A stretch of 38,750 nucleotides of DNA from an uncultured Bacilli bacterium. GTDB taxonomy: Bacteria; Bacillota_I; Bacilli_A; RF39; UBA660. The stretch covers positions 1 to 38,750 of the forward strand of contig CANRKE010000002.1 in NCBI GenBank assembly GCA_947631135.1, in the 5' to 3' direction. The position numbers and the translations under genes were made by a program. Below are positions 2,369-26,457 of this stretch, piece after piece (position 1 is the stretch's first letter; the number at the start of each line of letters is the position of its first letter). The notes under the pieces were generated by a model that was not told where the DNA came from, did no database searches, and worked only from the letters and a program-made list of their open reading frames with translations.

Positions 2369-4171
2369 ATGGAAAATTATAAATCAAGATTGAATGTTCC
2401 TGATAAATATAAATGGGATTTAAACGATTTTTATAAAAACATTGAAGAATGGGAAGATGAAAGAAAATATTTAAATTCTGAAATGAAAAAACTAGAAGAA
2501 TATAAGGGTAAAATAAACGATCCAAAATTAATGGAAGAATATTTGGATTTATATAATAATATAAAATGTAGATTATTAAATTTATATGCATATGCATATT
2601 TAAATCATGATGTTGATTTAAATAATAGTAAATATATGAAAATATTACAATCAGTAACTAGTATGTATACAGATTTTAATATTGCAATTGCATTTTTTAA
2701 TCCTGAATTATTAGATATTAGTGAAGAAGATTTTAATAATCTATTTATAAAAAATAAAAATCTAATAAAATATAAAAATATGTTAGAAAAAATATATGAA
2801 AAAAAGAAATATACTCTATCTCAAGAAAAGGAACAACTAATTAGTATGTTATCTGAAACTTATGATAGTTATGAAAATATATCAACATCATTATTAAATA
2901 GTGAAAATGATTATGGAAGAATTACTACAAGCGATGGGGATAATGTAGAAATATTGCTTAGTAATCTTAGAAAATTAAAACATGATAAAAGCGATAAAAT
3001 AAGAATGAAAGTAGATAGAAAATTTTATAAAGTAATAGAAAGATATCAAAATACTTATGCTTCATTATTAAATAATTTTGTTAAAAATAATGTTGTTTTA
3101 GCTAAAGTACATAATTATGATTCTGTTTGGGATATGTATTTAAAAGATGCAAAATTAACTAATAAAATTTTTAAATCATTACAAAGTGCTTGTGATAAAA
3201 AAATAGATGTAAATAAAAAGTATTTTTATTTAATGAAAAAAGTTTTAAATTTAAATATTTTACATTCATATGATACATCTTTAGATTGGAATGAATCATC
3301 TTTTGAATATACAATAGAAGAAGCAAATAATATTGTTATTAATTCACTATCTATGTTAGGTAGGGAATATACTGATAAACTTAAAAAAATATTTGATAAT
3401 CATTATATAGATTATTGTGGATATAAAGGTAAAACAAATGGAGGATATAGTTATTCTACATATGATAAGCCATCAAGAATATTGATGAACTTTAGAAATA
3501 CATTTGATGATATACTAACTATCGCACATGAAGCAGGACATAATGTTCATCATCAATTTGTAAATGAAGATAATTATCCATGGTATAGAAGTCAAGCAAT
3601 AATAATATGTGAAGTTGCTTCACTTACTAATGAATTTTTATTAACTAATTATTTTATTAATAATAGTAAATCTAAAAAAGAAAAATTATTAGGACTTGAA
3701 AATATAATTAAGACTTATCAAGCAAACTTTTTTGGAGCTATTATGGAAGGACAATTAGAAGTTAAAATGTATGACCTCGTTGAAAATGGTTCAAGTATTA
3801 CCTCAGATTTTTTAAATAATGAAATAAGTAAATTGTTAAAAAAATTTGAAGGTGATAGTGTTAAAAGAAATAAATACTCAAAGTATATTTGGGCAATTCG
3901 TAAACATTATTATATGGTTTATTATTTACTTAGTTATGCAATAAGTGTATCTGTTGCTTCTAATCTTGCTAAAAGAATAATAAATAAAGAAGAAGGTATT
4001 TTAGATAAATATTATAAATTCTTGAAATGTGGAAGTGATATGGATCCTATTAATGTATTTAAAATTTTAGATGTTGATATAGAAGATGAAGATGTATTTA
4101 TAAAAGGAATTGAATATTTTGATGAACAACTTAATCTATATGAAAAAATTTATAATGATAAGGAGGTATAA
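2369..4171 (+). CDS. M3B family oligoendopeptidase (PepF-like)
   Basis: 600 aa with the zinc motif [11 protein letters not shown] (HExxH). Size and layout are typical of oligoendopeptidase F. The stop lies 2 nt before the dnaJ start. Confidence 0.8.
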
Positions 4172-4173
4172 CG

Positions 4174-5307
4174 ATGAACAAAAGGGATTATTACGAAGTA
4201 TTAGGTGTTGATAAAAATGCTAGCGATAAAGATATTAAAAGTGCTTTTAGACGTCTTGCAAAACAATACCACCCAGATGTAAATAAAGATCCTGGAGCAG
4301 AAGATAAATTTAAAGAGATTCAAGAAGCATATGCAGTGTTATCAGATGAAAATAGAAGAAAACAATATGATCAGTTTGGTCATGCAGCATTCCAAGGTGG
4401 TCCTAGTGCATCTGGTGGATTCTCTGGATTTGATTTTAGTGATTTTGATTTTTCTGATATATTCTCAGATTTGTTTGGTGGAAGTAGTTTTGGATTCAAC
4501 TTTGGTGGTGGAGGATTTACTGGTAGATCTTCTGGAAAAGTACGTGGACGTGATAAAGTAATAAGTATGAATTTGACATTTGAAGAAGCAGTATTTGGGT
4601 GTTCAAAAGATATACAACTAGATATAATGGATACTTGTGATGACTGTGATGGCTTAGGTGGACATGGTGAAGAGAAGTGCGATGAATGTAATGGTCGTGG
4701 TACTATTGAACAACAACAAAGAAGTATATTAGGTACATATATAACACGTAGTACTTGTCCTAAATGTGGAGGTACAGGTAAAACTTATAAGACGACCTGC
4801 TCTACTTGTCATGGAAAAGGTAAAATACGCAAAAACAAAGAAATTACTGTTAAAGTTCCTGCCGGTGTTGATACTGGTAATCAATTAAGATTAGCATCTA
4901 AAGGTGAAGCTGGTTCTAATGGTGGACCTAATGGAGATTTATATATAGAATTTAATGTTAAATCTCATCCAATTTATGAACGTGAAGATGATAATATATA
5001 TCTAACTTTACCACTTAATATTGTTGATGCAACATTAGGATGTAAAAAAGAAGTACCAACATTATATGGAAATATCAACTTAGTTATTCCTGCTGGTAGT
5101 CAAAGTGGTGATAAACATAGATTACGTGGTAAAGGTGTTGAAAATGTCAGCACTAAAAGAAAAGGTGATATGTATATAATACTTGATGTTAATATTCCTG
5201 AAAAATTATCTAGAGATCAAAAGAAATTATTTGAACAACTTAAGAAAACTGAACTTTCTACTCCTAAAATCAAAAAGTATAACGAATTTTTAGATAAAAA
5301 TAGATAA
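4174..5307 (+). CDS. dnaJ: Co-chaperone DnaJ (Hsp40)
   Basis: J-domain (YYEVLGV...QYHPDVNKD), a Gly/Phe-rich region and four CxxCxG zinc-finger repeats (CDDCDG, CDECNG, CPKCGG, CSTCHG). Confidence 0.97.
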
Positions 5308-5341
5308 ATTATAAAAAGTGTATTGAATAATTAAAAAAAAT

Positions 5342-5480
5342 TTGATAATATTGAATTGTAATAGAAAAAGGTAGGTCCTCCTCGTATTGAACATGTACAA
5401 ACATATGTTCGATATGGGGAGGGTCAATATTATTCTTATAAGGCCAATTCACTTACCTTAGATATGTAAGTGAATTTTTT
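5342..5480 (+). promoter_or_regulatory. Conserved structured 5' leader, copy A (riboswitch/attenuator-like)
   Basis: The block recurs at 7023..7159 and 23377..23518. It contains a TTGATA box at 5342..5347 and AAGGTAGGT at 5368..5376. A helix pairs 5374..5383 (GGTCCTCCTC) with 5416..5425 (GGGGAGGGTC). An inner hairpin lies at 5389..5410 and a terminator at 5446..5480. Confidence 0.6.
5446..5480 (+). terminator. Intrinsic terminator closing leader copy A
   Basis: AATTCACTTAC-CTTAGATAT-GTAAGTGAATT is an 11-bp perfect stem followed by a T-run. It ends 44 nt before the ATG at 5524. Confidence 0.7.
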
Positions 5481-5523
5481 GATTAAATAATTATTAATAA
5501 TAAATAATAGGAGAGTGATTGTT

Positions 5524-6981
5524 ATGGAAGACCAATCTAATAAGAAAATAGGTATAATGATAGGTGCGATAATATTAGTGTCAATATTAATTGTTGGAAT
5601 AACTTATGCATATTTATCAGCTAATAAAAAAGCAAATGATCGAACAGTAAAGGCAGGAACATTATTAATAGAGTACGAAGATGATAATGTAAATTCAGTA
5701 AAACTAGAAAATATAGTACCAATAGATGACAGTGATATGATGACTAATGCAAATAAAATAGCATTTAAAGTAAATAATAAAGGTACAGCTTTAGCTTATG
5801 TTGATATTAGTATAACAAACATAAGTTTACCAGATGCGCTTAAAAGTACAGAATTTAAATGGGCTTTATATTCAAATAATGAAAAAGTGAATTCAGGTAA
5901 TTTTTCAAATGTTGAAGATGAGGGAATGTCACTTGTAAAAAATCAGGAGATAGCATCAAAAGCAAGTAAAAATTATGAATTATATATTTGGATAACTGAA
6001 ACAGATCTAGATCAATCAAGTATGATGGAAAAAACATTTTCAGGTAAAATAACAATAAATGGACACCAATATAAAGTAGAACAAAAAGAATTATTATCTG
6101 ATATAATAAAAAATAATAATTCACCAATAGATACAAAAGAACCAGATTTTACAACAACAGCAGAAACAAATGAAGGTTTAATTGAAGGTGAAGATTCAGA
6201 TGGAAAAACATATTATTTTAGAGGTAATGTTAATAATAATTATGTAAAAATAGAAGGATTAAAATGGACAGATGATGATGGAAATTATCACAGAAAAGAT
6301 GAAGACATGTTATTTAGGATAGTTAGAATCAATGGAGATAATTCTATCAGAATAATAGCAAATGGTTCTATTGGAACATGTAAATTCAATGAAAATATGG
6401 ATATGGAACAATATGTAGGATATACATTTAATAATAATAAAGTGTGTACAAAGGATGCAAAATGTGATGGAACAGAGGGAACACCATCAAAAATAAAAAC
6501 TTACTTAGATGATTGGTATAAAAATAACATTGAAGAAAAATATGATTCACTATTTACAACATCAAGATATTGTAATGACACATCGGGTACAACAAATTCA
6601 TATGGAGCAAAAGATAGATTGGAAACAAAAAATACACCAACATTTATATGTCCAGATACAGAAAAAATGTATGGTGGAGAATATAATTTAAAAATTGGTT
6701 TATTGTCAGCAGATGAAGCAGTGTTTGCTGGTGGAAAATATAATACTATAAATCAAAACTATTATTTGGTGGGAAGTAGTAACATGAGATGGTTCCTTTC
6801 ACCTAATCGCTTTGATGGTAGTGCATTTGCATTTGAATTATACTTTAATAATCTTATTAATAGTGATTATGTTCATAATGAATATGCTTCAGTTCCAGTC
6901 TTAAATTTACGTTCTGATACATCATTTACAGAAGGAAATGGAGAAAAAAACACACCATATTTGGTACGAGTTAAAAATTAG
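5524..6981 (+). CDS. Secreted or surface protein, paralog A: SipW/TasA-like signal and N-domain plus conserved C-terminal module
   Basis: RBS AGGAGAG lies 8 nt before the ATG at 5524 (the listed GTG at 5515 overlaps the RBS). The N-terminal anchor KIGIMIGAIILVSILIVGITYAYLSA resembles SipW-cognate signals (TasA ...GGGTWAAFND). It is followed by AGTLLIEYEDD..V.L.NI, as in the first strands of TasA. The C-terminal part carries YYFRG, RINGD, RYCNDTS, LLSADE, FAGG, W.LSP and VPVLNLR. Confidence 0.85.
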   Translation: MEDQSNKKIGIMIGAIILVSILIVGITYAYLSANKKANDRTVKAGTLLIEYEDDNVNSVKLENIVPIDDSDMMTNANKIAFKVNNKGTALAYVDISITNISLPDALKSTEFKWALYSNNEKVNSGNFSNVEDEGMSLVKNQEIASKASKNYELYIWITETDLDQSSMMEKTFSGKITINGHQYKVEQKELLSDIIKNNNSPIDTKEPDFTTTAETNEGLIEGEDSDGKTYYFRGNVNNNYVKIEGLKWTDDDGNYHRKDEDMLFRIVRINGDNSIRIIANGSIGTCKFNENMDMEQYVGYTFNNNKVCTKDAKCDGTEGTPSKIKTYLDDWYKNNIEEKYDSLFTTSRYCNDTSGTTNSYGAKDRLETKNTPTFICPDTEKMYGGEYNLKIGLLSADEAVFAGGKYNTINQNYYLVGSSNMRWFLSPNRFDGSAFAFELYFNNLINSDYVHNEYASVPVLNLRSDTSFTEGNGEKNTPYLVRVKN

Positions 6982-7022
6982 CAAAATATTTTGTCCAAAT
7001 ATATTGCACTTTCTCCAAAATT

Positions 7023-7159
7023 TTGATAGTATTGAATTGTAATAAAAAGGTAGGTCCTCTCCATAAAAGAACATGTACAAACATATGTTCGTGTTGGGGG
7101 GGGTCACTATTATTCTTATAAGGCCAATTCACTTACCTTGAATAGGTAGGTGATTTTTT
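7023..7159 (+). promoter_or_regulatory. Conserved structured 5' leader, copy B
   Basis: Near-identical to copy A. A helix pairs 7053..7062 (GGTCCTCTCC) with 7096..7105 (GGGGGGGGTC). An inner hairpin lies at 7069..7090, AAGGTAGGT at 7047..7055 and a terminator at 7129..7159. Confidence 0.6.
7129..7159 (+). terminator. Intrinsic terminator closing leader copy B
   Basis: TCACTTACC-TTGAATA-GGTAGGTGA forms 9 bp including one G-U pair, followed by TTTTTT. Confidence 0.65.
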
Positions 7160-7219
7160 GTATTGTTAAAATAATCAATGATATTTATTAAATAAAAAAA
7201 GTAGGAGAGTGAAAAAAAG

Positions 7220-8854
7220 ATGGAAAAGGAAAATAATAAGAAAAAAATAGGAATATTAATAAGTGCGATAATATTAGTATTAGTTCTAATAGTTGGAATA
7301 ACATATGCATATCTATCATCACATCTAAATACTGATAATCGTGATTTGCAAGCAGGAACATTACTAATAGAATATGAAGATGATAATGCAAATACAGTAA
7401 GATTAGATAATATACAATCAATATATGATAAAGATATAAAAGAAAAAGCTAGTAAGATAAGTTTTAAAGTAAACAATACAGGAACAGCTAAAGCTTATGT
7501 TGATATTAATATAACAGATATTAGTTTACCTCCTGAACTGGCAGATTTAGAATTTAAGTGGACATTATATTCAGGTGAAGAAAAAATAAATAATGGAAAC
7601 TTTAGAAATGTATTAGATAATAAAATATTACTTATAAATAATCAAGAAATTGCTAGTAAAGGAAATAAAATTTATGAATTATATATATGGATAAGTGAGA
7701 CAGGAAAAGACCAATCAGATATGATGAATAAAACTTTTTCTGGAAAAATAACAGTAGTAGGGCATCAAAAAAAACAATCAGAATTATTATCTAAAGTAAT
7801 TAAAAACAATAATCCATTACAAATAAATGATCCAAATTTTAACAAGGTTGCTGTTGCACAAGATTATTATGATATATTAACTGAAAGTACAAATCCTAAA
7901 CAATCTGAAGCAACTGTAGAAAACGGATTGTATGCAGGTGAAGATGCTGATGGAGAAACATATTATTTTAGAGGTAATGTAGAAGATAATTATTTAAAGA
8001 TTGAAGGTTTAAAATGGCCTAGTGATTCAAAACCAGCATATCTATTATCAAAAGCTAATATTATCTTTTTTTCAATTGGAAGTGTAGAAACAAATTGTGA
8101 TAATAACTATTCTACTTATGGTTATATATCAAATGAAGAATGTAAAGCAGATATAATGGAAGTAGGAGCACAGCCAGGTGAAGATATGTTATTTAGAATA
8201 ACGAGAATTAATGGAGATGGAACAATCAGAATAATAGCAGATGGTTCTGTCGCAAATTATCCATTTAATCAAAACCATAATTTAGAAAAATACGTAGGAT
8301 ATACATATGACAACAGTAAACCAAACATTCAAAATGGGAATCCTTCAAATATTAAAAGATATTTGGATAATTGGTATAAAAAAAACATGACTGATTATGA
8401 TAAAATACTAGCAAGTACAAGATATTGTAATGATACATCAGTATACAATATAAATGGAAATTCTATATATTATGGTGCATATAATAGAATAAGAAAAACA
8501 ATAACTCCGACATATATATGTCCTAATACAAATAAAACTTATGGTGGAGAATATGATTTAAAGATAGGACTATTATCAGCAGATGAAATTGTATTTGCTG
8601 GTGGAAATTACGGATTATCTAACAAAAGTTATTATTTATATGGAAGTATTGCATATAAATGGCTTATGTCACCATATTATTACAGTGGTAGTAATACTTC
8701 TGAATTTGGCACTCATATAGGAGGTAACATAGATTATAATTATAATTACAATAATGAAGCTGTTGTACCTGTCCTAAACATACGTGCAGATACACCTTTT
8801 ACAGAAGGTAATGGAACTAAAGATAATCCCTATTTGGTACGAACTGAAAATTAG
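7220..8854 (+). CDS. Secreted or surface protein, paralog B (same family as 5524..6981)
   Basis: RBS AGGAGAG lies about 10 nt before the ATG. It has the same signal (KIGILISAIILVLVLIVGITYAYLSS), N-domain and C-terminal motifs as paralog A. It also carries an extra Cys-containing insert of about 50 aa that is shared with paralog C. Confidence 0.9.
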   Translation: MEKENNKKKIGILISAIILVLVLIVGITYAYLSSHLNTDNRDLQAGTLLIEYEDDNANTVRLDNIQSIYDKDIKEKASKISFKVNNTGTAKAYVDINITDISLPPELADLEFKWTLYSGEEKINNGNFRNVLDNKILLINNQEIASKGNKIYELYIWISETGKDQSDMMNKTFSGKITVVGHQKKQSELLSKVIKNNNPLQINDPNFNKVAVAQDYYDILTESTNPKQSEATVENGLYAGEDADGETYYFRGNVEDNYLKIEGLKWPSDSKPAYLLSKANIIFFSIGSVETNCDNNYSTYGYISNEECKADIMEVGAQPGEDMLFRITRINGDGTIRIIADGSVANYPFNQNHNLEKYVGYTYDNSKPNIQNGNPSNIKRYLDNWYKKNMTDYDKILASTRYCNDTSVYNINGNSIYYGAYNRIRKTITPTYICPNTNKTYGGEYDLKIGLLSADEIVFAGGNYGLSNKSYYLYGSIAYKWLMSPYYYSGSNTSEFGTHIGGNIDYNYNYNNEAVVPVLNIRADTPFTEGNGTKDNPYLVRTEN

Positions 8855-8876
8855 AAAAAAATTTATAAAAAAATAT

Positions 8877-8950
8877 ACACAAACATATGTTCGGTATGGG
8901 GGGGGTCATACTTAAAAGACCTTAAGTACTTATCTTAAAAATTTGATAAT
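8877..8950 (+). repeat. Truncated fourth copy of the leader (3' half only)
   Basis: ACACAAACATATGTTCGGTATGGGGGGGGTCATA...AAGACCTTA matches the 3' half of copies A-C. The 5' GGTAGGTCCTCTCC strand is missing and no paralog gene follows. Confidence 0.7.
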
Positions 8951-8993
8951 TTTAATAATAACGTGTAAACTATTTTTACAATATTATAATTAT

Positions 8994-9022
8994 TTGACTT
9001 ATAATAAAGTGGATAGTATAAT
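8994..9022 (+). promoter_or_regulatory. Sigma-A-type promoter for the U32 peptidase gene
   Basis: TTGACT (8994..8999), a 17-nt spacer, then TATAAT (9017..9022), about 40 nt upstream of the ATG at 9062. Confidence 0.65.
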
Positions 9023-9061
9023 ATATTTATACAACACTTTTTTAATTTTGGAGGAATTTTT

Positions 9062-11236
9062 ATGATTGAATTATTATCTCCAGCAGGTGATATTGAAAGC
9101 TTGTATTATGCAATATATGCTGGTTGTGATGCAGTTTATATTGGTGGCAAAAATTTTGGAGCACGTAAATATGCTAAAAACTTTAGTGATGAAGAACTTA
9201 AGCAAGCTAGATATATAACAAAATTATATGGAGTAAAATTATATATTACATTAAATACATTAGTATATGATAGTGAATGGGAAGAGATAACAGAGTATAT
9301 TAGATTTTTATATAAATTAGGTGTAGATGCAGTAATAGTACAAGATATTGGATTAGTTGATTATATAAATAAAAAATTCCCTAATCTTACAATTCATGCA
9401 TCAACACAAATGAATGCACATAATAAAAATACACTAGAAAAACTAAAACAAATGGGAGTAAAAAGAGTAGTGTTAGCTCGTGAAGTAAGTCTTGATAATA
9501 TTAATAATATTGATACTGATATAGAAAGAGAAATATTTATTCATGGAGCACTCTGTGTGTCATATTCAGGATGTTGCTTGCTTAGTAGTTACATCGGTAA
9601 AAGAAGTGGTAATAGAGGAGAATGTGCAGGAACATGTAGATTACCATATGAACTATATAATGGCAATGATAAAATAAATACTGATGGAAAATATTTGCTA
9701 TCAATGAAAGATTTATGTACACTAGAAAAATTAGATCAAATATTAAAATCAAATGTAAATAGTTTAAAAATTGAGGGAAGAATGAAATCTAAAGAATATG
9801 TATATTATGTTACTAAAATATATAGAAAATATATAGATATGTATTATAAATGTGGTAATATAAAAATAGATGAAGAAGATAATAATTTACTTAAGATACT
9901 TTTTAATAGAAATTTTACAAATGGATATCTTTTTGATAGTAAAAATAATATAAATATTAAAACTAGTAATAATATAGGATTATATATTGGTAATGTAATT
10001 GACTATAAAAATAATAAATGTAAAATAAAATTAAATAAAAAATTAGAAGTTAATGATGGTATAAGAATAGTAAATAAAAATAGTGAAATAGGATTAATTG
10101 TAAATAAAATAGAAGAAAATAAAAATAATATAGTAACAATATTTCCTAATCATAAAATAGAAGTTGGTAGTAAAGTATTTATAACATCTAAAAATAATTT
10201 AGTTGTAAATCCTACTAAAATAGATATTAATATGAATATAGAAATAAATGATAATTCTATAATAGTTGAAATATATAATGATAGAAAAAACATTACATGT
10301 AAGAGTAACAATATAATAGAACGTGCTAAAAATAATCCAATAGATATTGAATTTATTAAAAAACATATGTCTAAACTTGGTAATACACCATTTAAAATAA
10401 ATAAGATAAATATAACTAATATACCTAATAATATTTATATTAATATAGGAAAAATAAATGAATTCAGAAGAGAATGTATACAAAAATTTATAGATGAATT
10501 AACTAAAAATGATATTGATTTTATTGAAAATGATTATAATCTAAAAACATATAAATCAAATAGTAATATAGAATATAGTGTATTTGTAAAGAATGAAGCA
10601 CAATTTAATGAAGTAATAAAATATCCATTAAATAGAATATATGTTGATTATAATATATATAATAAATATAAAAATATGTATAATAATTTAGTATTGGTAT
10701 TACCTAGAATAAATTATATTGATTATAAATTAAATAATGAAAGATTATTAATAAGAGAATTAGGATCATTAAAATATGCATCTGATAATTATGTAATAAG
10801 TGATTATACATTGAATGTAACTAATAGTTATTCTGTTAACTATTTAAAAGAAAATAATGTTAAAAGAATTACTCTATCTACTGAATTTGATAAAAATAAT
10901 ATAGATATTAAAGATAAAAATGATTTAGAAATGATTATTTATGGTAAAATAGAATTAGCAATATCTAAATATTGTGTAATTAGTAATGTATTAAATAAAA
11001 ATAAGGGATGTAAATTATGTCGTGATAATAATTTTTACTTATCTGATAGATTAAATAGTAAATATAAATTAATAAATGATGAATATTGTAATTCTATTAT
11101 ATTATCTAGTAGACCATATGATAATATAGATTTAATAGAAAAATATATTGATAGTGGTATAAGTAATTTTAGATTAAATTTCTATGATGAAAGTGAAGAT
11201 ACAATAATTAATATATTAAATAAAATATATAAGTAG
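9062..11236 (+). CDS. Peptidase U32 family protein (collagenase-like, long form)
   Basis: The N-terminus MIELLSPAGDIESLYYAIYAGCDAVYIGG...FGAR and the segments IHASTQMN, ExFIHGALCVSYSGxCLLS and KIEGRMKS are typical of the U32 family. RBS GGAGG lies upstream. Confidence 0.85.
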   Translation: MIELLSPAGDIESLYYAIYAGCDAVYIGGKNFGARKYAKNFSDEELKQARYITKLYGVKLYITLNTLVYDSEWEEITEYIRFLYKLGVDAVIVQDIGLVDYINKKFPNLTIHASTQMNAHNKNTLEKLKQMGVKRVVLAREVSLDNINNIDTDIEREIFIHGALCVSYSGCCLLSSYIGKRSGNRGECAGTCRLPYELYNGNDKINTDGKYLLSMKDLCTLEKLDQILKSNVNSLKIEGRMKSKEYVYYVTKIYRKYIDMYYKCGNIKIDEEDNNLLKILFNRNFTNGYLFDSKNNINIKTSNNIGLYIGNVIDYKNNKCKIKLNKKLEVNDGIRIVNKNSEIGLIVNKIEENKNNIVTIFPNHKIEVGSKVFITSKNNLVVNPTKIDINMNIEINDNSIIVEIYNDRKNITCKSNNIIERAKNNPIDIEFIKKHMSKLGNTPFKINKINITNIPNNIYINIGKINEFRRECIQKFIDELTKNDIDFIENDYNLKTYKSNSNIEYSVFVKNEAQFNEVIKYPLNRIYVDYNIYNKYKNMYNNLVLVLPRINYIDYKLNNERLLIRELGSLKYASDNYVISDYTLNVTNSYSVNYLKENNVKRITLSTEFDKNNIDIKDKNDLEMIIYGKIELAISKYCVISNVLNKNKGCKLCRDNNFYLSDRLNSKYKLINDEYCNSIILSSRPYDNIDLIEKYIDSGISNFRLNFYDESEDTIINILNKIYK

Positions 11237-23300: not shown

Positions 23301-23376
23301 TAAATGCGAATATAAACACAATAACTGTAAAATAATTCTAAAATTTGTATAATTCACTTGTACTTTCCAAATTTTT

Positions 23377-23518
23377 TTGATAATATGAGATTGTAATAAA
23401 AAAGGTAGGTCCTCTCCATAAAAGAACATGTGCAAACATATGTTCGATATGGGGGGGGTCATAAAATTTTTATAAGACCTTAAAAGCTTACCTTAAATAA
23501 GGTAGGTGTTTTATTTGG
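23377..23518 (+). promoter_or_regulatory. Conserved structured 5' leader, copy C (terminal hairpin overlaps the SD and start of the downstream gene)
   Basis: A helix pairs 23408..23417 with 23451..23460 (the G8 run) and an inner hairpin lies at 23424..23445. The terminal hairpin is CTTACCTT (23487..23494)-AAAT-AAGGTAGG (23499..23506), followed by GTTTTATTT. The 8-mer AAGGTAGG is also present at 23402..23409. Confidence 0.6.
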
Positions 23519-25107
23519 ATAAGAATAAAAGAAAGGTAACAACAATAGTAACGACATTAATAGCGATAGTATTACTATTAATAAGTATAACATATGCATA
23601 CATGTCAGCAACAAAAGTAACAACAAAGAATTCAGTACAAGCAGGAACATTATTAATTAATTATGAAGATGATAAATTAAATACAGTAAATTTAAGTAAT
23701 ATACAACCAATATATGATAAAGATATAAAGACTAAAGCTAATAAAATATCATTTAAAGTAAACAATACAGGAACAGCTAAAGCTTATGTAGATATCAATA
23801 TAACAGATATTAACCTACCTAGTGAGTTAGCAGATTTAGAGTTTAAATGGGCACTATATTCTGGTGATGAAAAAATAAGTAATGGTAATTTCAGAAATGT
23901 ATTAGATAATAAATTACTTCTAATCAACAACGAAGAAATAGAATCAACTAAAAATAAAAGTTATGATTTATATATCTGGATAAGTGAATCAGAATTAGAT
24001 CAATCAGATATGATGAATAAAACATTTTCTGCTAAAATAACAGTAGTAGGACATCAAAATAAACAAGCAGAATTACTTTCAAAAGTAATTAAAGATAATA
24101 ATGAACCTAGTACACAAAAACCTGATTTCAACAAAACATCAGAAACAGATGACGGATTAATACAAGATATAGATAAAGATGGAGAAACTTATTATTTTAG
24201 AGGAGCAGTAGAATACAATTATTTAAAAATAGAAGGATTAACATGGCCTGATGATTCAGAGACAGGATATCTAATACCTGGTAGTAAATTATTGATAGTA
24301 TTTCCTACAAAAAATGAGGCAGAAAATACTTGTAATTCATCATATTCACAATATGGATATCAATCAATAGATGAATGTAAAAATGAGATAAAGGAAGTAG
24401 GAGCACAACCAGGTGAATATATGTTATTTAGGGTAGTAAGAATTAATGGGGATAGAACTATTAGAATTATAGCTGATGGATCAATTGGTAAGAGTTCGTT
24501 TAATGTACCATCTAATGAAGAAAAGTATGTAGGGTATACATATAATAACAGTAAACCAAATATTCAAGATGGTGATTCTTCTACAATAAAGGAATATTTA
24601 GATAATTGGTATGACGAAAATATGACAAATTATAATAAGATATTCGCATATACAAGATATTGTAACGATACAACAACAGGACATATAAATAGTAGTGGAT
24701 ATTTATATTATGGAGCATATGATAGATTAGATGTCGATAATAATGGTGCTAATCCACAACCTACATATATATGTCCAAACACAGATAAATTATATGGAGG
24801 AGAATATGATTTAAAAATAGGATTATTATCAGCAGATGAAGTATCATTTGCAGGTGGAAAATATAATTCAATTAATCAAAATTATTATCTATTTGGTAAG
24901 AGTGGTTGGAGATTTCTTGGATCACCTAATTATTTTACAGGTAGTAATTCTAGTGAGTTTAGTATAAATGGATATGGTGGTTTAGGTATTAATAATATTA
25001 AAAATGAAAATTCAGTTATACCAGTCTTAAATCTACGTGCTGACACACCATTTATACAAGGTGATGGAACAAAGAACTCACCGTACATCGTAAGTGTAAA
25101 TAATTAA
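23515..25107 (+). CDS. Secreted or surface protein, paralog C (same family as 5524..6981 and 7220..8854)
   Basis: Same signal (IAIVLLLISITYAYMSA), N-domain and C-terminal motifs as the other paralogs. The TTG at 23515 lies 6 nt after AAGGTAGGTG and gives MDKNKRK..., matching the N-termini of A and B. The listed GTG at 23506 lies inside the SD. Confidence 0.85.
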   Translation: MDKNKRKVTTIVTTLIAIVLLLISITYAYMSATKVTTKNSVQAGTLLINYEDDKLNTVNLSNIQPIYDKDIKTKANKISFKVNNTGTAKAYVDINITDINLPSELADLEFKWALYSGDEKISNGNFRNVLDNKLLLINNEEIESTKNKSYDLYIWISESELDQSDMMNKTFSAKITVVGHQNKQAELLSKVIKDNNEPSTQKPDFNKTSETDDGLIQDIDKDGETYYFRGAVEYNYLKIEGLTWPDDSETGYLIPGSKLLIVFPTKNEAENTCNSSYSQYGYQSIDECKNEIKEVGAQPGEYMLFRVVRINGDRTIRIIADGSIGKSSFNVPSNEEKYVGYTYNNSKPNIQDGDSSTIKEYLDNWYDENMTNYNKIFAYTRYCNDTTTGHINSSGYLYYGAYDRLDVDNNGANPQPTYICPNTDKLYGGEYDLKIGLLSADEVSFAGGKYNSINQNYYLFGKSGWRFLGSPNYFTGSNSSEFSINGYGGLGINNIKNENSVIPVLNLRADTPFIQGDGTKNSPYIVSVNN

Positions 25108-25119
25108 ATTTATTAAAAT

Positions 25120-25175
25120 AAAAAAAAGATACTGTCTAAAATTAAGTAATTAATTTTAGACAGTACCATTTTTTT
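25120..25175. terminator. Bidirectional intrinsic terminator
   Basis: ACTGTCTAAAATTAA-GTAA-TTAATTTTAGACAGT (25131..25164) is a 15-bp stem flanked by an A-run (25120..25127) and a T-run (25169..25175). It sits between the convergent paralog C gene and the RiPP operon. Confidence 0.8.
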
Positions 25176-26457
25176 AATTACCTTCATTGTTATTTTTTTC
25201 AAGTAATAACTTTAGTAAAGGTTTAACAACAAATCTATTACGTACACAAGGTGTTCTCATAGTATTACTTAAGTTTCTATTATATAAGCATCCTCCTAAA
25301 CAAATAGGAAGAAAAGGGCATTCTTTACACTCTTCAAGTGCATATTTGAAATTATGATATTTTTCGGTATCATTTTTATCTACTGATGAAAAGTCTTGAA
25401 CACAAGCATGGGTAGTACCATCTGGAGCTATAACCACTGCATTTGATTTAGAAGCTAAACACCCATTAAATTTAGCTTTAGGAAATAAATCTTTAAGTGT
25501 AATTTTATTATTTGAATTAAGTAATGCTTTAAAAACATCGTAAAAGAAATCTTCTTTTTCAAAATCTTTAATATAGCTGTCAGCCATTTCATGTTCTGGT
25601 GGGAATAAGTAAGTAGGAAATAAATGAAGATTATCAAATTGCATTAAGTCAGATATAGAATCTAAAATTTTAGAAAAACTATCTTTATTGTGATTATCTA
25701 AATGTATTCTTAAATTAACATATACACCAGATTTTAATAGTTCCAATATTCCATCATGCGTTTTTTTAAAAGCACTTTCTCCATTTAAACTAACATTCTT
25801 TCTACGATTATGTTCTTCTTCTACTCCATCAATAGTAATATGCGCTGATTCTAAATGCCATTTATTAGTCATATGCGATATAAGATTTTTTGTAAGTAAG
25901 GTTCCATTAGTTGTAATTGATGAACTCCAGTTGTTATTTTTTAACTTATTCATGGATATTAACTTATCAATTATTTCATCAATTTTGTTAACACATAACA
26001 ATGGCTCACCACCATACCAATCTAGTACACATTTTGAGTTTTCATCTATATTTTTTGCTAAAAAATCTATAATTTTTTCGTTTGACTCTTTAGTTATGGA
26101 CTTCTTGCAATAATTTTCTTCGTAACAATAAAAACATTTAGCATTACAAGCTGTAGTAGGAATTATAGTAAAGAAATTAAGATTATTTTTTTTAGCAATT
26201 TCGATATTAGAAATAAATTTTTCATACTCATTAATATTATTTGGTACAATAAATCCATTTTCGGCTAGAATATGTTTTTCATCTTCTTTACTGCTTAGCA
26301 TATCATAATCTTCATCTATTATTACTACTGCTGAAGAAGCACTATTAAAAATAGCTTTTTTATTAAATTGACATACCTCAATATTATACATTGATTCTTT
26401 ATAAGGTATATCATCTACCAAATTATACTTGTTTTTACTTTCTCTACATATTTCCAT
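25174..26457 (-). CDS. Radical SAM/SPASM domain peptide-modifying enzyme B
   Basis: Radical SAM motif IIPTTACNAKCFYCYE (CxxxCxxC), plus WYGGEPLL and ITTNGTLL. The C-terminal SPASM Cys pattern reads C-x19-C ... CKECPFLPICLGGC...C. The start lies 2 nt after the methyltransferase stop. Confidence 0.85.
   Translation of the reverse strand: MEICRESKNKYNLVDDIPYKESMYNIEVCQFNKKAIFNSASSAVVIIDEDYDMLSSKEDEKHILAENGFIVPNNINEYEKFISNIEIAKKNNLNFFTIIPTTACNAKCFYCYEENYCKKSITKESNEKIIDFLAKNIDENSKCVLDWYGGEPLLCVNKIDEIIDKLISMNKLKNNNWSSSITTNGTLLTKNLISHMTNKWHLESAHITIDGVEEEHNRRKNVSLNGESAFKKTHDGILELLKSGVYVNLRIHLDNHNKDSFSKILDSISDLMQFDNLHLFPTYLFPPEHEMADSYIKDFEKEDFFYDVFKALLNSNNKITLKDLFPKAKFNGCLASKSNAVVIAPDGTTHACVQDFSSVDKNDTEKYHNFKYALEECKECPFLPICLGGCLYNRNLSNTMRTPCVRNRFVVKPLLKLLLEKNNNEGN

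Follow-up and report, generated by a model that had tools for sequence, protein, structure and literature searches.

A repeated, structured 5′ leader with a conserved box and a G run precedes secreted-protein paralogs of uncultured Bacilli: a candidate attenuator family

We analyzed a stretch of 38,750 nucleotides, referred to below as the window, from contig CANRKE010000002.1 of an uncultured Bacilli bacterium (GenBank assembly GCA_947631135.1). A repeated element in the window is, with a probability of roughly 60%, the 5′ mRNA leader of each of three paralogous genes, acting as an attenuator; it would represent a new family, possibly tuned by slippage in a run of G residues. The element is repeated with a conserved architecture, its fold is strand-specific, and compensatory changes occur in the hairpin, in the sequestering helix, and in a long-range helix between the 5′ part of the leader and the terminal hairpin (helix P1).

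The three genes lie on the + strand. Paralog A (5524-6981) codes for a secreted protein of 485 aa with a SipW-type signal peptide, which matches TIGR04088 with 20.9 bits (cut-off 19) and, in its N-terminal part only, PF12389 with 22.7 bits (cut-off 22.5). Paralog B (7220-8854) codes for 544 aa and scores 22.6 bits with PF12389, and paralog C (23515-25107) codes for 530 aa and scores 26.5 bits with TIGR04088. The TTG start of paralog C was fixed by alignment with A and B. The paralogs share 57-60% identity. The PF12389 (TasA/camelysin) match covers residues 7-92 alone, is barely over the cut-off, and is found in A and B, not in C, while TIGR04088 passes in A and C, not in B. The 300 residues at the C-terminus make up another domain, which is unnamed, and relatives match DUF6273 weakly. 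In the relatives, at least 6-12 copies of the gene family are present per genome.

Three full copies of the leader were found on the + strand at 5342-5480 (copy A), 7023-7159 (copy B), and 23377-23518 (copy C), each directly 5′ of one paralog with a SipW-type signal peptide. Copy D (8877-8950, + strand) is a 3′ relic that begins at the box (8880-8893) and continues with a G8 run (8898-8905). Its joiner and hairpin have decayed, it is devoid of promoter, 5′ strands, and gene, and its fold is no better than that of shuffles (z = -0.6). The four positions and the strand are those given in the original prediction. ENA contig L082 has a stretch identical to copy D, and the run is G8 in both. When A, B, and C were used to build a covariance model, it scored these copies with 141-152 bits and copy D with 20.4 bits. 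The 12-mer AACRWWTGTTCG has four exact occurrences in the window, confined to the leader copies; with one mismatch allowed, both strands of the window contain eight occurrences against 0.82 expected. G8 runs are found three times in this window of about 25% G+C, and they are confined to copies B, C, and D.

The leader folds on the + strand with -40 to -45 kcal/mol (z = -5 to -6.5), whereas the z-score on the - strand is -1.4 to -3.7. The claim of a structured element on the transcribed strand, 5′ of every paralog in the window, is supported. Copies A and B had been described as near-identical; their identity over the element is 86% instead. Identity between the copies amounts to 79-86% in the leader, 65-72% in the CDS nucleotides, and 51-56% in the 100 nt further upstream. 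The linker TATAAG(G/A)CC, which had been called conserved, holds within the window alone and is absent from the homologous leaders found elsewhere.

The most prominent feature of the fold is a long hairpin. Its 10-bp helix pairs GGTCCTCTCC with GGGGGGGGTC in copy B (7053-7062 with 7096-7105) and in copy C (23408-23417 with 23451-23460), and GGTCCTCCTC with GGGGAGGGTC in copy A (5374-5383 with 5416-5425), all on the + strand and exactly as previously placed. Three changes in this helix had been presented as pairable. They are compatible with pairing; they are also one-sided, lying opposite a G or an A (e.g., U-G to U-A), and not compensatory. The inner hairpin GAACATGT/ACAAAC/ATATGTTC and the terminal hairpin with a T run, which had been proposed as well, are both present. 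In copy A, the long hairpin occupies 5377-5425 (+ strand) according to the RNAfold MFE structure, the RNAalifold consensus, and the pair counts. Its 5′ side consists of the pyrimidine strand CCTCCTC (5377-5383), GTAT (5384-5387), and U 5388, which wobble-pairs with G 5411, the last base of the box. The inner hairpin follows, with GAACATGT at 5389-5396, the ACAAAC loop at 5397-5402, and ATATGTTC at 5403-5410. The 3′ side is made of ATAT (5412-5415), the interrupted G run GGGGAGGG (5416-5423), and TC. The conserved box CAAACATATGTTCG lies at 5398-5411 (+ strand).

Copies B and C have the same order of parts on the + strand. In copy B, these are the pyrimidine strand CCTCTCC (7056-7062), the inner hairpin (7069-7090), the box (7078-7091), and G8 (7096-7103) with TC; in copy C, they are the pyrimidine strand (23411-23417), the inner hairpin (23424-23445), the box (23433-23446), and G8 (23451-23458) with TC. 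The box is unchanged in copies A-D and has no other occurrence in the window.

The leader ends in a hairpin whose 5′ arm has two possible partners. The original prediction held that a 5′ segment of the leader can compete for this arm. Such a pairing exists, although it is better written as AAGGTAGGT, forming 9 bp with ACTTACCTT. In copy A, the P1 5′ strand AAGGTAGGT (5368-5376, + strand), which is the antiterminator strand, pairs with 5451-5459. The terminator of copy A (5446-5480, + strand) is composed of AATTCACTTAC (5446-5456) and GTAAGTGAATT (5466-5476), an 11-bp stem, with T6 as the T run to 5480. Its 5′ arm holds the P1 3′ strand ACTTACCTT (5451-5459), and this overlap of the two helices was read directly from the sequence. 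In copy B, AAGGTAGGT is located at 7047-7055 (+ strand); the terminator TCACTTACCT/AGGTAGGTGA with T6 (7129-7159, + strand), detected by the terminator scan (7129-7153 and T6) and by the fold, contains ACTTACCTT at 7131-7139. Copy C has the P1 5′ strand at 23402-23410 (+ strand) and a terminal hairpin GCTTACCTT/AAGGTAGGT, then GTTTTATTTG (23486-23517, + strand; 23486-23507 in the terminator scan). The 5′ arm of this hairpin is the P1 3′ strand, and its 3′ arm AAGGTAGGTG serves the TTG start at 23515 as ribosome-binding site, so copy C can act on translation too.

Each full copy is preceded by a putative sigma-70-type promoter on the + strand. For copy A (5323-5351), it consists of TTGAAT (5323-5328), a 17-nt spacer, and TGa-TAATAT, with the -10 at 5346-5351. 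The corresponding sites are TTGCAC (7004-7009), 17 nt, and TGa-TAGTAT (7027-7032) for copy B (7004-7032), and TTGTAC (23358-23363), 17 nt, and TGa-TAATAT (23381-23386) for copy C (23358-23386). The copy A promoter agrees with the consensus at 8/12 positions and has the TG extension. Window-copy promoters of this quality (8/12 and the TG extension) fall under the threshold of the promoter scan and were not listed by it. The promoter-like -35/-10 pairs of A, B, and C stand at the same distance from P1.

The leader is kept in other organisms: ten homologous leaders were found in other uncultured-Bacilli metagenome contigs, 5′ of homologous genes with a protein identity of 41-52%. They come from the E20__bin216 MAG (L010, L019, and L076), from ENA sample ERZ27253194 (L083, L201, L202, L204, and L206, with the truncated L205 in addition), and from BRZ samples (L084 and L203). 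In the protein-guided scan of species-representative genomes, the first search gave no relative, and a broader alignment gave 80 loci. The covariance model from the three window copies alone was too narrow, yet it still gave weak matches to L019 (23 bits) and L010 (17 bits). A metagenome pattern scan for the box with poly-G returned 112 stretches, which is about the number expected by chance; these were mostly GC-rich LexA-like sites or coding poly-G tracts, and the low-GC family-linked matches alone were kept.

All leaders follow a common order: promoter, P1 5′ strand, long hairpin, variable joiner, and P1 3′ strand. The P1 3′ strand is in every case the 5′ arm of either a terminator or a hairpin hiding the ribosome-binding site. 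An intrinsic terminator between promoter and gene is present in A, B, and C, and also in L083, L201, L202, and L204. The joiner between the hairpin and P1 measures 15-40 nt and has no sequence common to the lineages. A sigma-70-like -35/-10 pair with 16-17-nt spacing lies 15-40 nt 5′ of P1 in 12 of the 13 leaders (9 of the 10 from other contigs). The box consensus nAAAC(A/G)WWTGTTCG is found in 12 of the 13 aligned leaders, the exception being L076, whose left half is CGAAC. Pairing between the pyrimidine strand and the G run is found in every one of the 13, and 100% of the cells of this helix are paired in the 11-leader count. The architecture is conserved across four sequence types (lineages).

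Covariation was assessed on several alignments. With a plain MAFFT alignment of eight leaders, RNAalifold gave a long hairpin of 20 pairs and a terminator of 7 pairs, with 5 pairs compensated. On the plain 11-leader alignment it predicted no structure because the G runs were misaligned. A structure-guided alignment of 13 leaders had 95.2% of 312 cells paired compared to 48-55% with slid partners, and double changes at six pairs; these pairing values were reached by none of 500 shuffles. The 95% of paired cells (about 50% when slid) and the six compensated pairs support the antiterminator/terminator leader proposed originally, with part of the covariation counted on an alignment curated to the structure and the independent events being few, essentially two clades and paralog drift. 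P1 itself comprises 9 pairs with 95% of the cells paired and 3 pairs compensated (G-C to A-U twice, U-A to C-G). Compensatory changes in another lineage keep the mutually exclusive pairing that had been proposed: AAGGUAGGU/ACUUACCUU versus AAAACAAG/CUUGUUUU and AAAAUAAG/CUUAUUUU. The sequestering helix covaries between L019 (CCUUUACU/AGUAAAGG) and L084 (CCUUAACU/AGUUAAGG). Between the window and the ERZ27253194 leaders, P1 is homologous, with one G-U to A-U change (MAFFT). The chance of a P1-like complement is 0.002-0.007 per leader in shuffles judged at the observed pair quality; if unlimited G-U pairs are permitted, 1-31% of the shuffles match.

A search of the whole window against Rfam 15, with families such as c-di-GMP-I/II, preQ1, T-box, PyrR, EAR, and ANTAR targets, gave no match at gathering thresholds. 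Nothing overlapping the leader copies was found in 5250-9100 at E up to 10, and L203, L010, and L082 had no match at E up to 1, which agrees with the earlier remark that the copies could not be matched to several known RNA families. Similar DNA was not found in plasmid and phage collections, a scan of viral contigs gave unrelated matches only, and literature searches yielded no description of such a leader.

Based on these data, we propose the following mechanism for the attenuator. Transcription would start about 10-20 nt 5′ of AAGGUAGGU. In the folded leader, the helix of the pyrimidine strand and the G run would enclose a hairpin carrying the box AAAC-R-WW-UGUUCG. The second hairpin would be an intrinsic terminator in A and B, and in C it would also hide the ribosome-binding site; its formation would correspond to the OFF state, which is predicted to be thermodynamically favored. 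In the ON state, the 5′ segment AAGGUAGGU would pair with ACUUACCUU, the 5′ arm of the second hairpin, to form P1. As P1 takes this arm, the terminator or sequestering hairpin could not form. Our best guess is that two inputs together determine which of P1 and the terminator prevails, namely the number of residues in the slippage-prone G run and a candidate factor recognizing the box. The run length would decide whether the long hairpin extends into the P1 5′ strand and locks it away, and each paralog would in this way have a heritable setting, either ON/OFF or graded.

The G run is a hallmark of the gene family, and it had been overlooked by the earlier reader. It is a pure G7-8 in 10 of the 13 leaders, in every case on the 3′ strand of the hairpin, and an A is found within it in copy A, L203, and L206. 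Such an A would lock the run in these three. With G8 in 8 of the 13 leaders, true length polymorphism is barely documented: L084 has G7 and L010 has G8, their downstream genes being 95% identical in protein, and L204 has G7 versus G8 in its paralogs. The window contains tracts of at least 7 G at 7096-7103, 8898-8905, and 23451-23458, the tract of copy A being interrupted (GGGGAGGG). They are located in the transcribed leader, outside any credible ORF, and not in a promoter spacer or a reading frame. In relatives, runs of G6-G14 occur in promoter spacers and in upstream ORFs, the frame of the latter deciding if a stop codon falls inside a terminator. These sites in the relatives are classic for phase variation, and the run can have no role in them other than slipped-strand phase variation.

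Constraint folding was performed to follow the effect of run length. The terminator had its greatest advantage over P1 at G7-G8 in each of the four leaders tested, and this advantage was 3-7 kcal/mol lower at G9-G10. For transcripts ending at the P1 3′ strand, the change from G8 to G9 raised the predicted P1 probability from 0.00 to 0.73 in L019, from 0.37 to 0.96 in L083, and from 0.52 to 1.00 in L201. The predicted effect is weak in the window copies, where P1 has a probability of 0.78-1.0 in the truncated transcript at every length and the terminator is still favored at equilibrium by 1-10 kcal/mol. We put forward only tentatively that the family undergoes phase variation via RNA folding, in which one G more or less decides if the helix extends into the antiterminator strand and locks it away, with heritable and reversible switching of each paralog. 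Switching would then act on the termination of transcription or the initiation of translation, and not on promoter spacing or reading frame. It is possible, again with some doubt, that the same module of box and G run serves two output platforms, namely the cis-pairing hairpin here and an upstream ORF running into a terminator in the relatives. The proposed attenuator mechanism leaves the invariant box unexplained.

The box can also be read at the DNA level, as an operator for a LexA/SinR-type helix-turn-helix repressor, in which case the G run would be the spacer in a phase-variable promoter of the form (A/T)TGTTC, 15-19 nt, TATTAT/TAAAAT, as in related paralogs. The LexA (Cheo) box of Firmicutes is CGAAC-N4-GTTCG; our box resembles this consensus, and L076 has a perfect one. 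The relatives have G runs in promoter spacers, such as TTGACTcG8taaatgcTATACT, and in A, B, C, and the E20 leaders ATGTTC is followed after 16-17 nt by a -10-like hexamer. We nevertheless consider this reading unlikely. The -35 candidate ATGTTC agrees with TTGACA at 2/6 positions, and in A or B a transcript from that promoter would keep the whole terminator and lose the antiterminator. An operator needs no 5′ pyrimidine strand, P1, or sequestering helix, and these three parts are kept by compensatory changes and by G-U wobble changes possible on one strand only. A canonical LexA box was rejected as a candidate: the window contains no GAAC-N4-GTTC, copies A-D all read AAAC in the left half, and L076 alone has CGAACATTTGTTCG.

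A metabolite-binding riboswitch, an initial suggestion for this element, is improbable. P1, the long hairpin, and the joiner would then form an aptamer, and a ligand would stabilize P1 and turn on the gene, in the same way as the pbuE adenine switch works. The expression platform is indeed laid out as in the ON type, with the P1 3′ strand common with the terminator 5′ arm; the 14-nt box is invariant, and the lack of a match to known families leaves room for an orphan class. The reading is unsupported because the joiner, which would close the junction, is not conserved: it varies over 15-40 nt with no sequence common to the lineages. The hairpin has neither a conserved internal loop nor a conserved junction and amounts to a nearly continuous rod; its conservation is highest in a homopolymer and the pyrimidine strand paired with it, and the invariant parts (the box and the G run) are unlike a ligand pocket. 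Moreover, the relatives have the same box and G run in translated upstream ORFs without the hairpin, and the genes, members of a multicopy surface/secreted family, have no connection to metabolism. Of the possible triggers of the attenuator, a small-molecule ligand is the least likely.

We give little credence to an independent small-RNA gene 5′ of each paralog, whose trans-acting transcript of about 110 nt would end at the terminator and might act, for example, with its C/U-rich strand on G runs in other mRNAs of the family, in the manner of RepG and tlpB. The terminators of A and B are strong, 43-60 nt and weak promoter-like sites precede the ribosome-binding site, and a C/U-rich segment acting on a G repeat is the RepG mechanism (PMC8295292). 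Against this, the C/U strand is fully paired in cis, and the 3′ arm of the terminal hairpin is the gene's ribosome-binding site in C, L201, L206, L019, L010, L203, and L076, which makes leader and mRNA one molecule in these seven.

Still less credible is a ribosome-mediated attenuator, in which a short ORF would start at the ATG/TTG of the box and the frame set by the G run would decide if the terminator is covered by the ribosome. Two relatives, L116 and L182, apparently work in this way: they have a Shine-Dalgarno sequence and an ATG upstream ORF with the box and the G run, only one of three frames meets a stop just 5′ of the terminator 3′ arm, and this is the frame seen in both contigs. The ORF that begins at the box ATG of A and B ends within the terminator loop. 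We rejected this ORF since no hairpin-type leader has a Shine-Dalgarno sequence before the box ATG/TTG, the start codon is buried in the inner hairpin, and the stop positions relative to P1 are inconsistent (-40 to +135 nt in 13 leaders). An internal promoter with the G run as its spacer is a weak candidate.

If the attenuator reading is correct, the leader represents a cis-regulatory RNA family not yet catalogued, from uncultured gut Bacilli that form spores, in which, to our knowledge, nothing is known about gene regulation. It would join structured leader RNAs with simple-sequence phase variation, two fields that are usually apart. Should run length set the attenuator, it would be a compact heritable RNA switch over a large family of surface/secreted proteins, which are likely involved in host or phage interaction.

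Several known systems resemble parts of this arrangement. In Mycoplasma hyorhinis vlp and Neisseria opc/porA, a homopolymeric tract lies in the spacer of phase-variable promoters. Common features are a surface/secreted multigene family and a separate G run for each copy, and homologs in related MAGs show exactly that arrangement; in the window, however, the run lies 3′ of the promoter in a transcribed helix, and its length cannot act via the -35/-10 spacing. Like the LexA (Cheo) box, CAAACATATGTTCG is palindromic and only one position off the consensus. It differs in that the critical G of the left half is missing from all window copies, the box lies about 45 nt 3′ of the promoter, and the strand complementary to it has RNA-type wobble changes. 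As in trp/erm leader-peptide attenuation combined with a frame-shifting repeat, L116 and L182 have the stop of an upstream ORF in the terminator, whereas the window leaders have a cis-pairing strand in place of a translatable upstream ORF. ON-type riboswitches (pbuE adenine) and factor-dependent attenuators share with our leader the double use of the P1 3′ strand as the 5′ arm of the terminator or sequestering hairpin and the mutually exclusive states. Unlike these systems, the leader has no Rfam match or conserved junction, and what is conserved is a 14-nt box and a G run. In H. pylori tlpB/RepG, a G run in the 5′ leader pairs with a C/U-rich RNA, and the run length sets the expression level (PMC8295292). 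The homopolymeric G run in the leader and its C/U-rich partner are alike in both cases. In our leader, the partner is located in cis, 33-38 nt 5′ of the run in the window copies, rather than on a separate sRNA; the output would depend on a terminator or a sequestering hairpin, the variation in length and what it does are only predicted, and the hosts are unrelated low-GC Bacilli.

The leader is an uncatalogued, conserved, and real RNA of terminator/antiterminator design, set apart by a homopolymeric G run that forms part of the switch helix. It was found before each of the three secreted-protein paralogs of the window, precisely where it had been described, at positions 5342-5480 (copy A), 7023-7159 (copy B), and 23377-23518 (copy C) of the + strand. 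Among the copies, nucleotide identity is 79-86% in the leader, 65-72% in the coding sequence, and 51-56% in the DNA just upstream. The box conserved in the inner hairpin (AACRWWTGTTCG) occurs in the window only in these copies and in a 3′ relic, copy D, with 0.8 occurrences expected by chance at one mismatch; G8 runs are confined to copies B, C, and D. The + strand of the leader folds much better than its shuffles (z = −5 to −6.5), and the − strand folds much more poorly (z = −1.4 to −3.7) because many of the leader pairs are G-U. The element is thus beyond chance. Its supposed novelty was upheld by Rfam 15, which gave no match to the window at gathering thresholds, none overlapping the leader copies at E up to 10, and none in three homologous loci. 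Relic D (8877-8950, + strand), located 3′ of gene B, begins precisely at the box, with neither promoter nor 5′ strands. A near-identical ENA contig (L082, 3390-3470) matches the window exactly across the relic and the downstream U32 peptidase gene, and its upstream gene (P0007) differs in 5′ end and in neighbours. Either recombination within the family or a low-coverage, chimeric L082 contig would explain this difference.

The window, with a G+C content of ~25%, encodes dipicolinate synthase, dnaK/dnaJ, and pyruvate formate-lyase, indicating a spore-forming low-GC bacterium. The paralogs (gene A, 5524-6981; gene B, 7220-8854; gene C, 23515-25107, with a TTG start; all on the + strand) share 57-60% protein identity. 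Their description as TasA-like held only in part: A and C pass the SipW-type signal peptide model, but the kinship to TasA is thin, and the camelysin Pfam model reaches only the first 90 residues, with a score at the cut-off. The last 300 residues form a separate, cysteine-containing C-terminal domain. Between gene C and the convergent radical-SAM gene (25174-26457) lies a perfect palindrome of 16-18 bp, flanked on each side by a T run (25128-25167), a predicted bidirectional terminator. Elsewhere in the window, a 600-aa protein whose N-terminal domain is that of oligopeptidase F (M3) (2369-4171) is encoded between dnaK (452-2302) and dnaJ (4174-5307), an unusual insertion in an otherwise conserved chaperone operon.

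The protein family is rare and almost confined to uncultured Bacilli of animal-gut metagenomes. About ten further leaders were recovered, every one upstream of a homologous gene: L010, L019, and L076 come from one MAG (E20), L083, L201, L202, L204, L206, and L205 from one ENA sample (ERZ27253194), with a different paralog behind each, and L084 and L203 were found in addition. L205 is 5′-truncated; the others are complete enough for alignment. The L076 leader (3881-3990) precedes a gene for a protein with a prepilin-type N-terminal methylation motif (MKKNGFTLIELV...) and the family C-terminal domain; therefore, the leader goes with the family and not with the signal peptide. PF07963 was found in further relatives too, and, judging from these sequences, the C-terminal domain appears to be borne on two or more distinct modules for secretion or anchoring.

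All leaders consist of ten parts in identical order: a sigma-70-like promoter (TTGnnn, 16-17 nt, TAnnAT, in most cases extended by TG), the 5′ strand of the antiterminator helix P1, a pyrimidine strand, the 5′ strand of the inner hairpin, a loop continuing into the box nAAAC(A/G)WWTGTTCG, 0-5 nt, a G7-8 run, a joiner of 15-40 nt without conserved sequence, the P1 3′ strand, and the 3′ arm of the terminal hairpin. In A, B, L083, L201, L202, and L204 the terminal hairpin forms a terminator together with a U run, and in C, L201, L206, L019, L010, L203, and L076 its 3′ arm contains the ribosome-binding site of the gene.

The structure was examined by RNAalifold on an unedited MAFFT alignment of eight leaders from the window and ERZ27253194, which yielded a long hairpin of 20 pairs and a terminal hairpin of seven, with five compensated pairs. 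A plain alignment of all 11 leaders recovered no structure because it misplaced the G runs in the E20-type leaders, which are shorter; therefore, a structure-guided alignment was made, with gaps entered as N and the P1 register following the MAFFT homology of the window and ERZ strands. In this alignment (13 leaders, 29 pairs), standard pairs fill 95.2% of the cells, and 48-55% when the partners are slid by 1-3 columns. Double changes occur in six pairs, and none of 500 shuffles attained the observed pairing or covariation score. The P1 strands read AAGGUAGGU/ACUUACCUU and GGUAAGU/ACUUACC in the window and ERZ leaders, AAAACAAG/CUUGUUUU in the E20 type, and AAAAUAAG/CUUAUUUU in L076. Since unlimited G-U pairs would make a search for a P1 complement trivial, pair quality was considered; per leader, only 0.2-0.7% of shuffles yield a complement as good as the one observed. 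Covariation is seen in the sequestering helix as well (CCUUUACU/AGUAAAGG in L019 vs. CCUUAACU/AGUUAAGG in L084). The covariation events are not numerous, being in essence those of two clades together with paralog drift, and the structure, though well supported, is not proven.

The mutually exclusive pairing proposed earlier was retained: P1 and the terminator compete for one strand, and P1 is kept with three compensated pairs. Such a contest would produce an attenuator of the ON type. Folding calculations favour the terminator state at equilibrium in all leaders; its margin of 1-12 kcal/mol varies with the leader and with the length of the run. The original prediction had left the choice between riboswitch and attenuator. 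The layout agrees with the latter, and a metabolite aptamer is unlikely, as the joiner lacks conservation, the hairpin forms an almost continuous rod, and invariance is confined to a homopolymer, its pyrimidine partner, and a 14-nt box. A DNA operator with a phase-variable internal promoter, an independent sRNA gene, and leader-peptide attenuation each fail on at least one direct observation.

The left half of the box lies in the hairpin loop, and the box is most likely a site for a protein or RNA partner. A canonical LexA site was rejected on motif search. On other low-GC metagenome contigs (L128, two sites; L131; L117/L187/L096/L115; L173/L185), the box and a G run were found within unrelated short or membrane-protein ORFs, a few codons past a Shine-Dalgarno sequence and ATG. 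All three frames are represented, one 5-kb contig has two such sites, and in some of these ORFs the observed G8 places a stop codon directly after the run. The module may be in use outside this gene family, although it was itself selected for by the scan pattern. G9 tracts in the 5′ coding regions of L126, L149, L183, L162, and L109, whose products start ...MFGGGY.KS.NFELLRQML..., also fit the box pattern and probably reflect translational phase variation of the ordinary kind, without relation to the leader. In L147 (2100-2309, − strand; contig of 57% G+C), ~32-bp tandem units each carry GAAAACGAATGTTCGAAG followed by G9-G12.

G runs also occur in other positions in the family. About 40 related loci (within L002-L081) have homologous genes with a sigma-70-like promoter and a G6-G14 run inside its spacer (e.g., L003 5920-5960, L030 6400-6440, L057 5740-5775, and L069 3127-3140), as in TTGACTcG8taaatgcTATACT and TTGACAattggttttaG9TATAAT. 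Near-identical paralogs of one MAG differ in spacer run (G8 vs. G9). Surface-protein families that vary in phase by strand slippage classically carry a G run in the promoter spacer, and these loci look like such a system in a large surface-protein family of uncultured gut Bacilli. In L003, L005, L006, L008, and L001, a 10-nt motif (TGTGGAAAAC / TGTGGATAAC) stands on both sides of the G-run promoter and may be a pair of operators bound by a regulator specific to the family. In L116 and L182, the same box and a G run lie within an upstream ORF with a Shine-Dalgarno sequence (both on the − strand; ATG at 735 and 5368 of the reverse complement, respectively). A peptide of 41-42 codons results from only one of the three frames, with its stop codon just before the 3′ arm of the terminator that precedes the family gene, and the remaining frames stop after 17-25 codons. 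Both loci are in the long frame despite unequal runs (G9 and G10), and the frame in which the box is read differs among relatives of this type. The ORF is a candidate phase-variable, ribosome-mediated attenuator. With promoter-spacer and upstream-ORF runs, the family thus appears to have at least two further uses for G runs as mutable switches.

In the hairpin-type leaders, the G run invariably occupies the 3′ strand and consists of G alone in 10 of 13, in contrast with P1 and the inner helix, which drift freely. Its length is G7 in L084 vs. G8 in L010, whose downstream genes are 95% identical. In folding calculations, the terminator-state advantage was greatest at G7-G8 and 3-7 kcal/mol lower at G9-G10 in all four leaders tested. 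On transcripts ending at the P1 3′ strand, P1 probability rose from G8 to G9 in L019 (0.00 to 0.73), L083 (0.37 to 0.96), and L201 (0.52 to 1.00), because the long hairpin at G8 stacks into the P1 5′ strand and an added G breaks this extension. In the window copies it was nearly flat over run lengths (0.78-1.0). We infer from this modelling that run length may set the P1/terminator balance, most weakly for the window itself. Among published systems, the tlpB leader of H. pylori comes closest; there the sRNA RepG pairs through its C/U-rich loop with a variable G repeat, and repeat length determines expression (PMC8295292). RepG is a separate sRNA, whereas the C/U strand of the leaders studied here is in cis.
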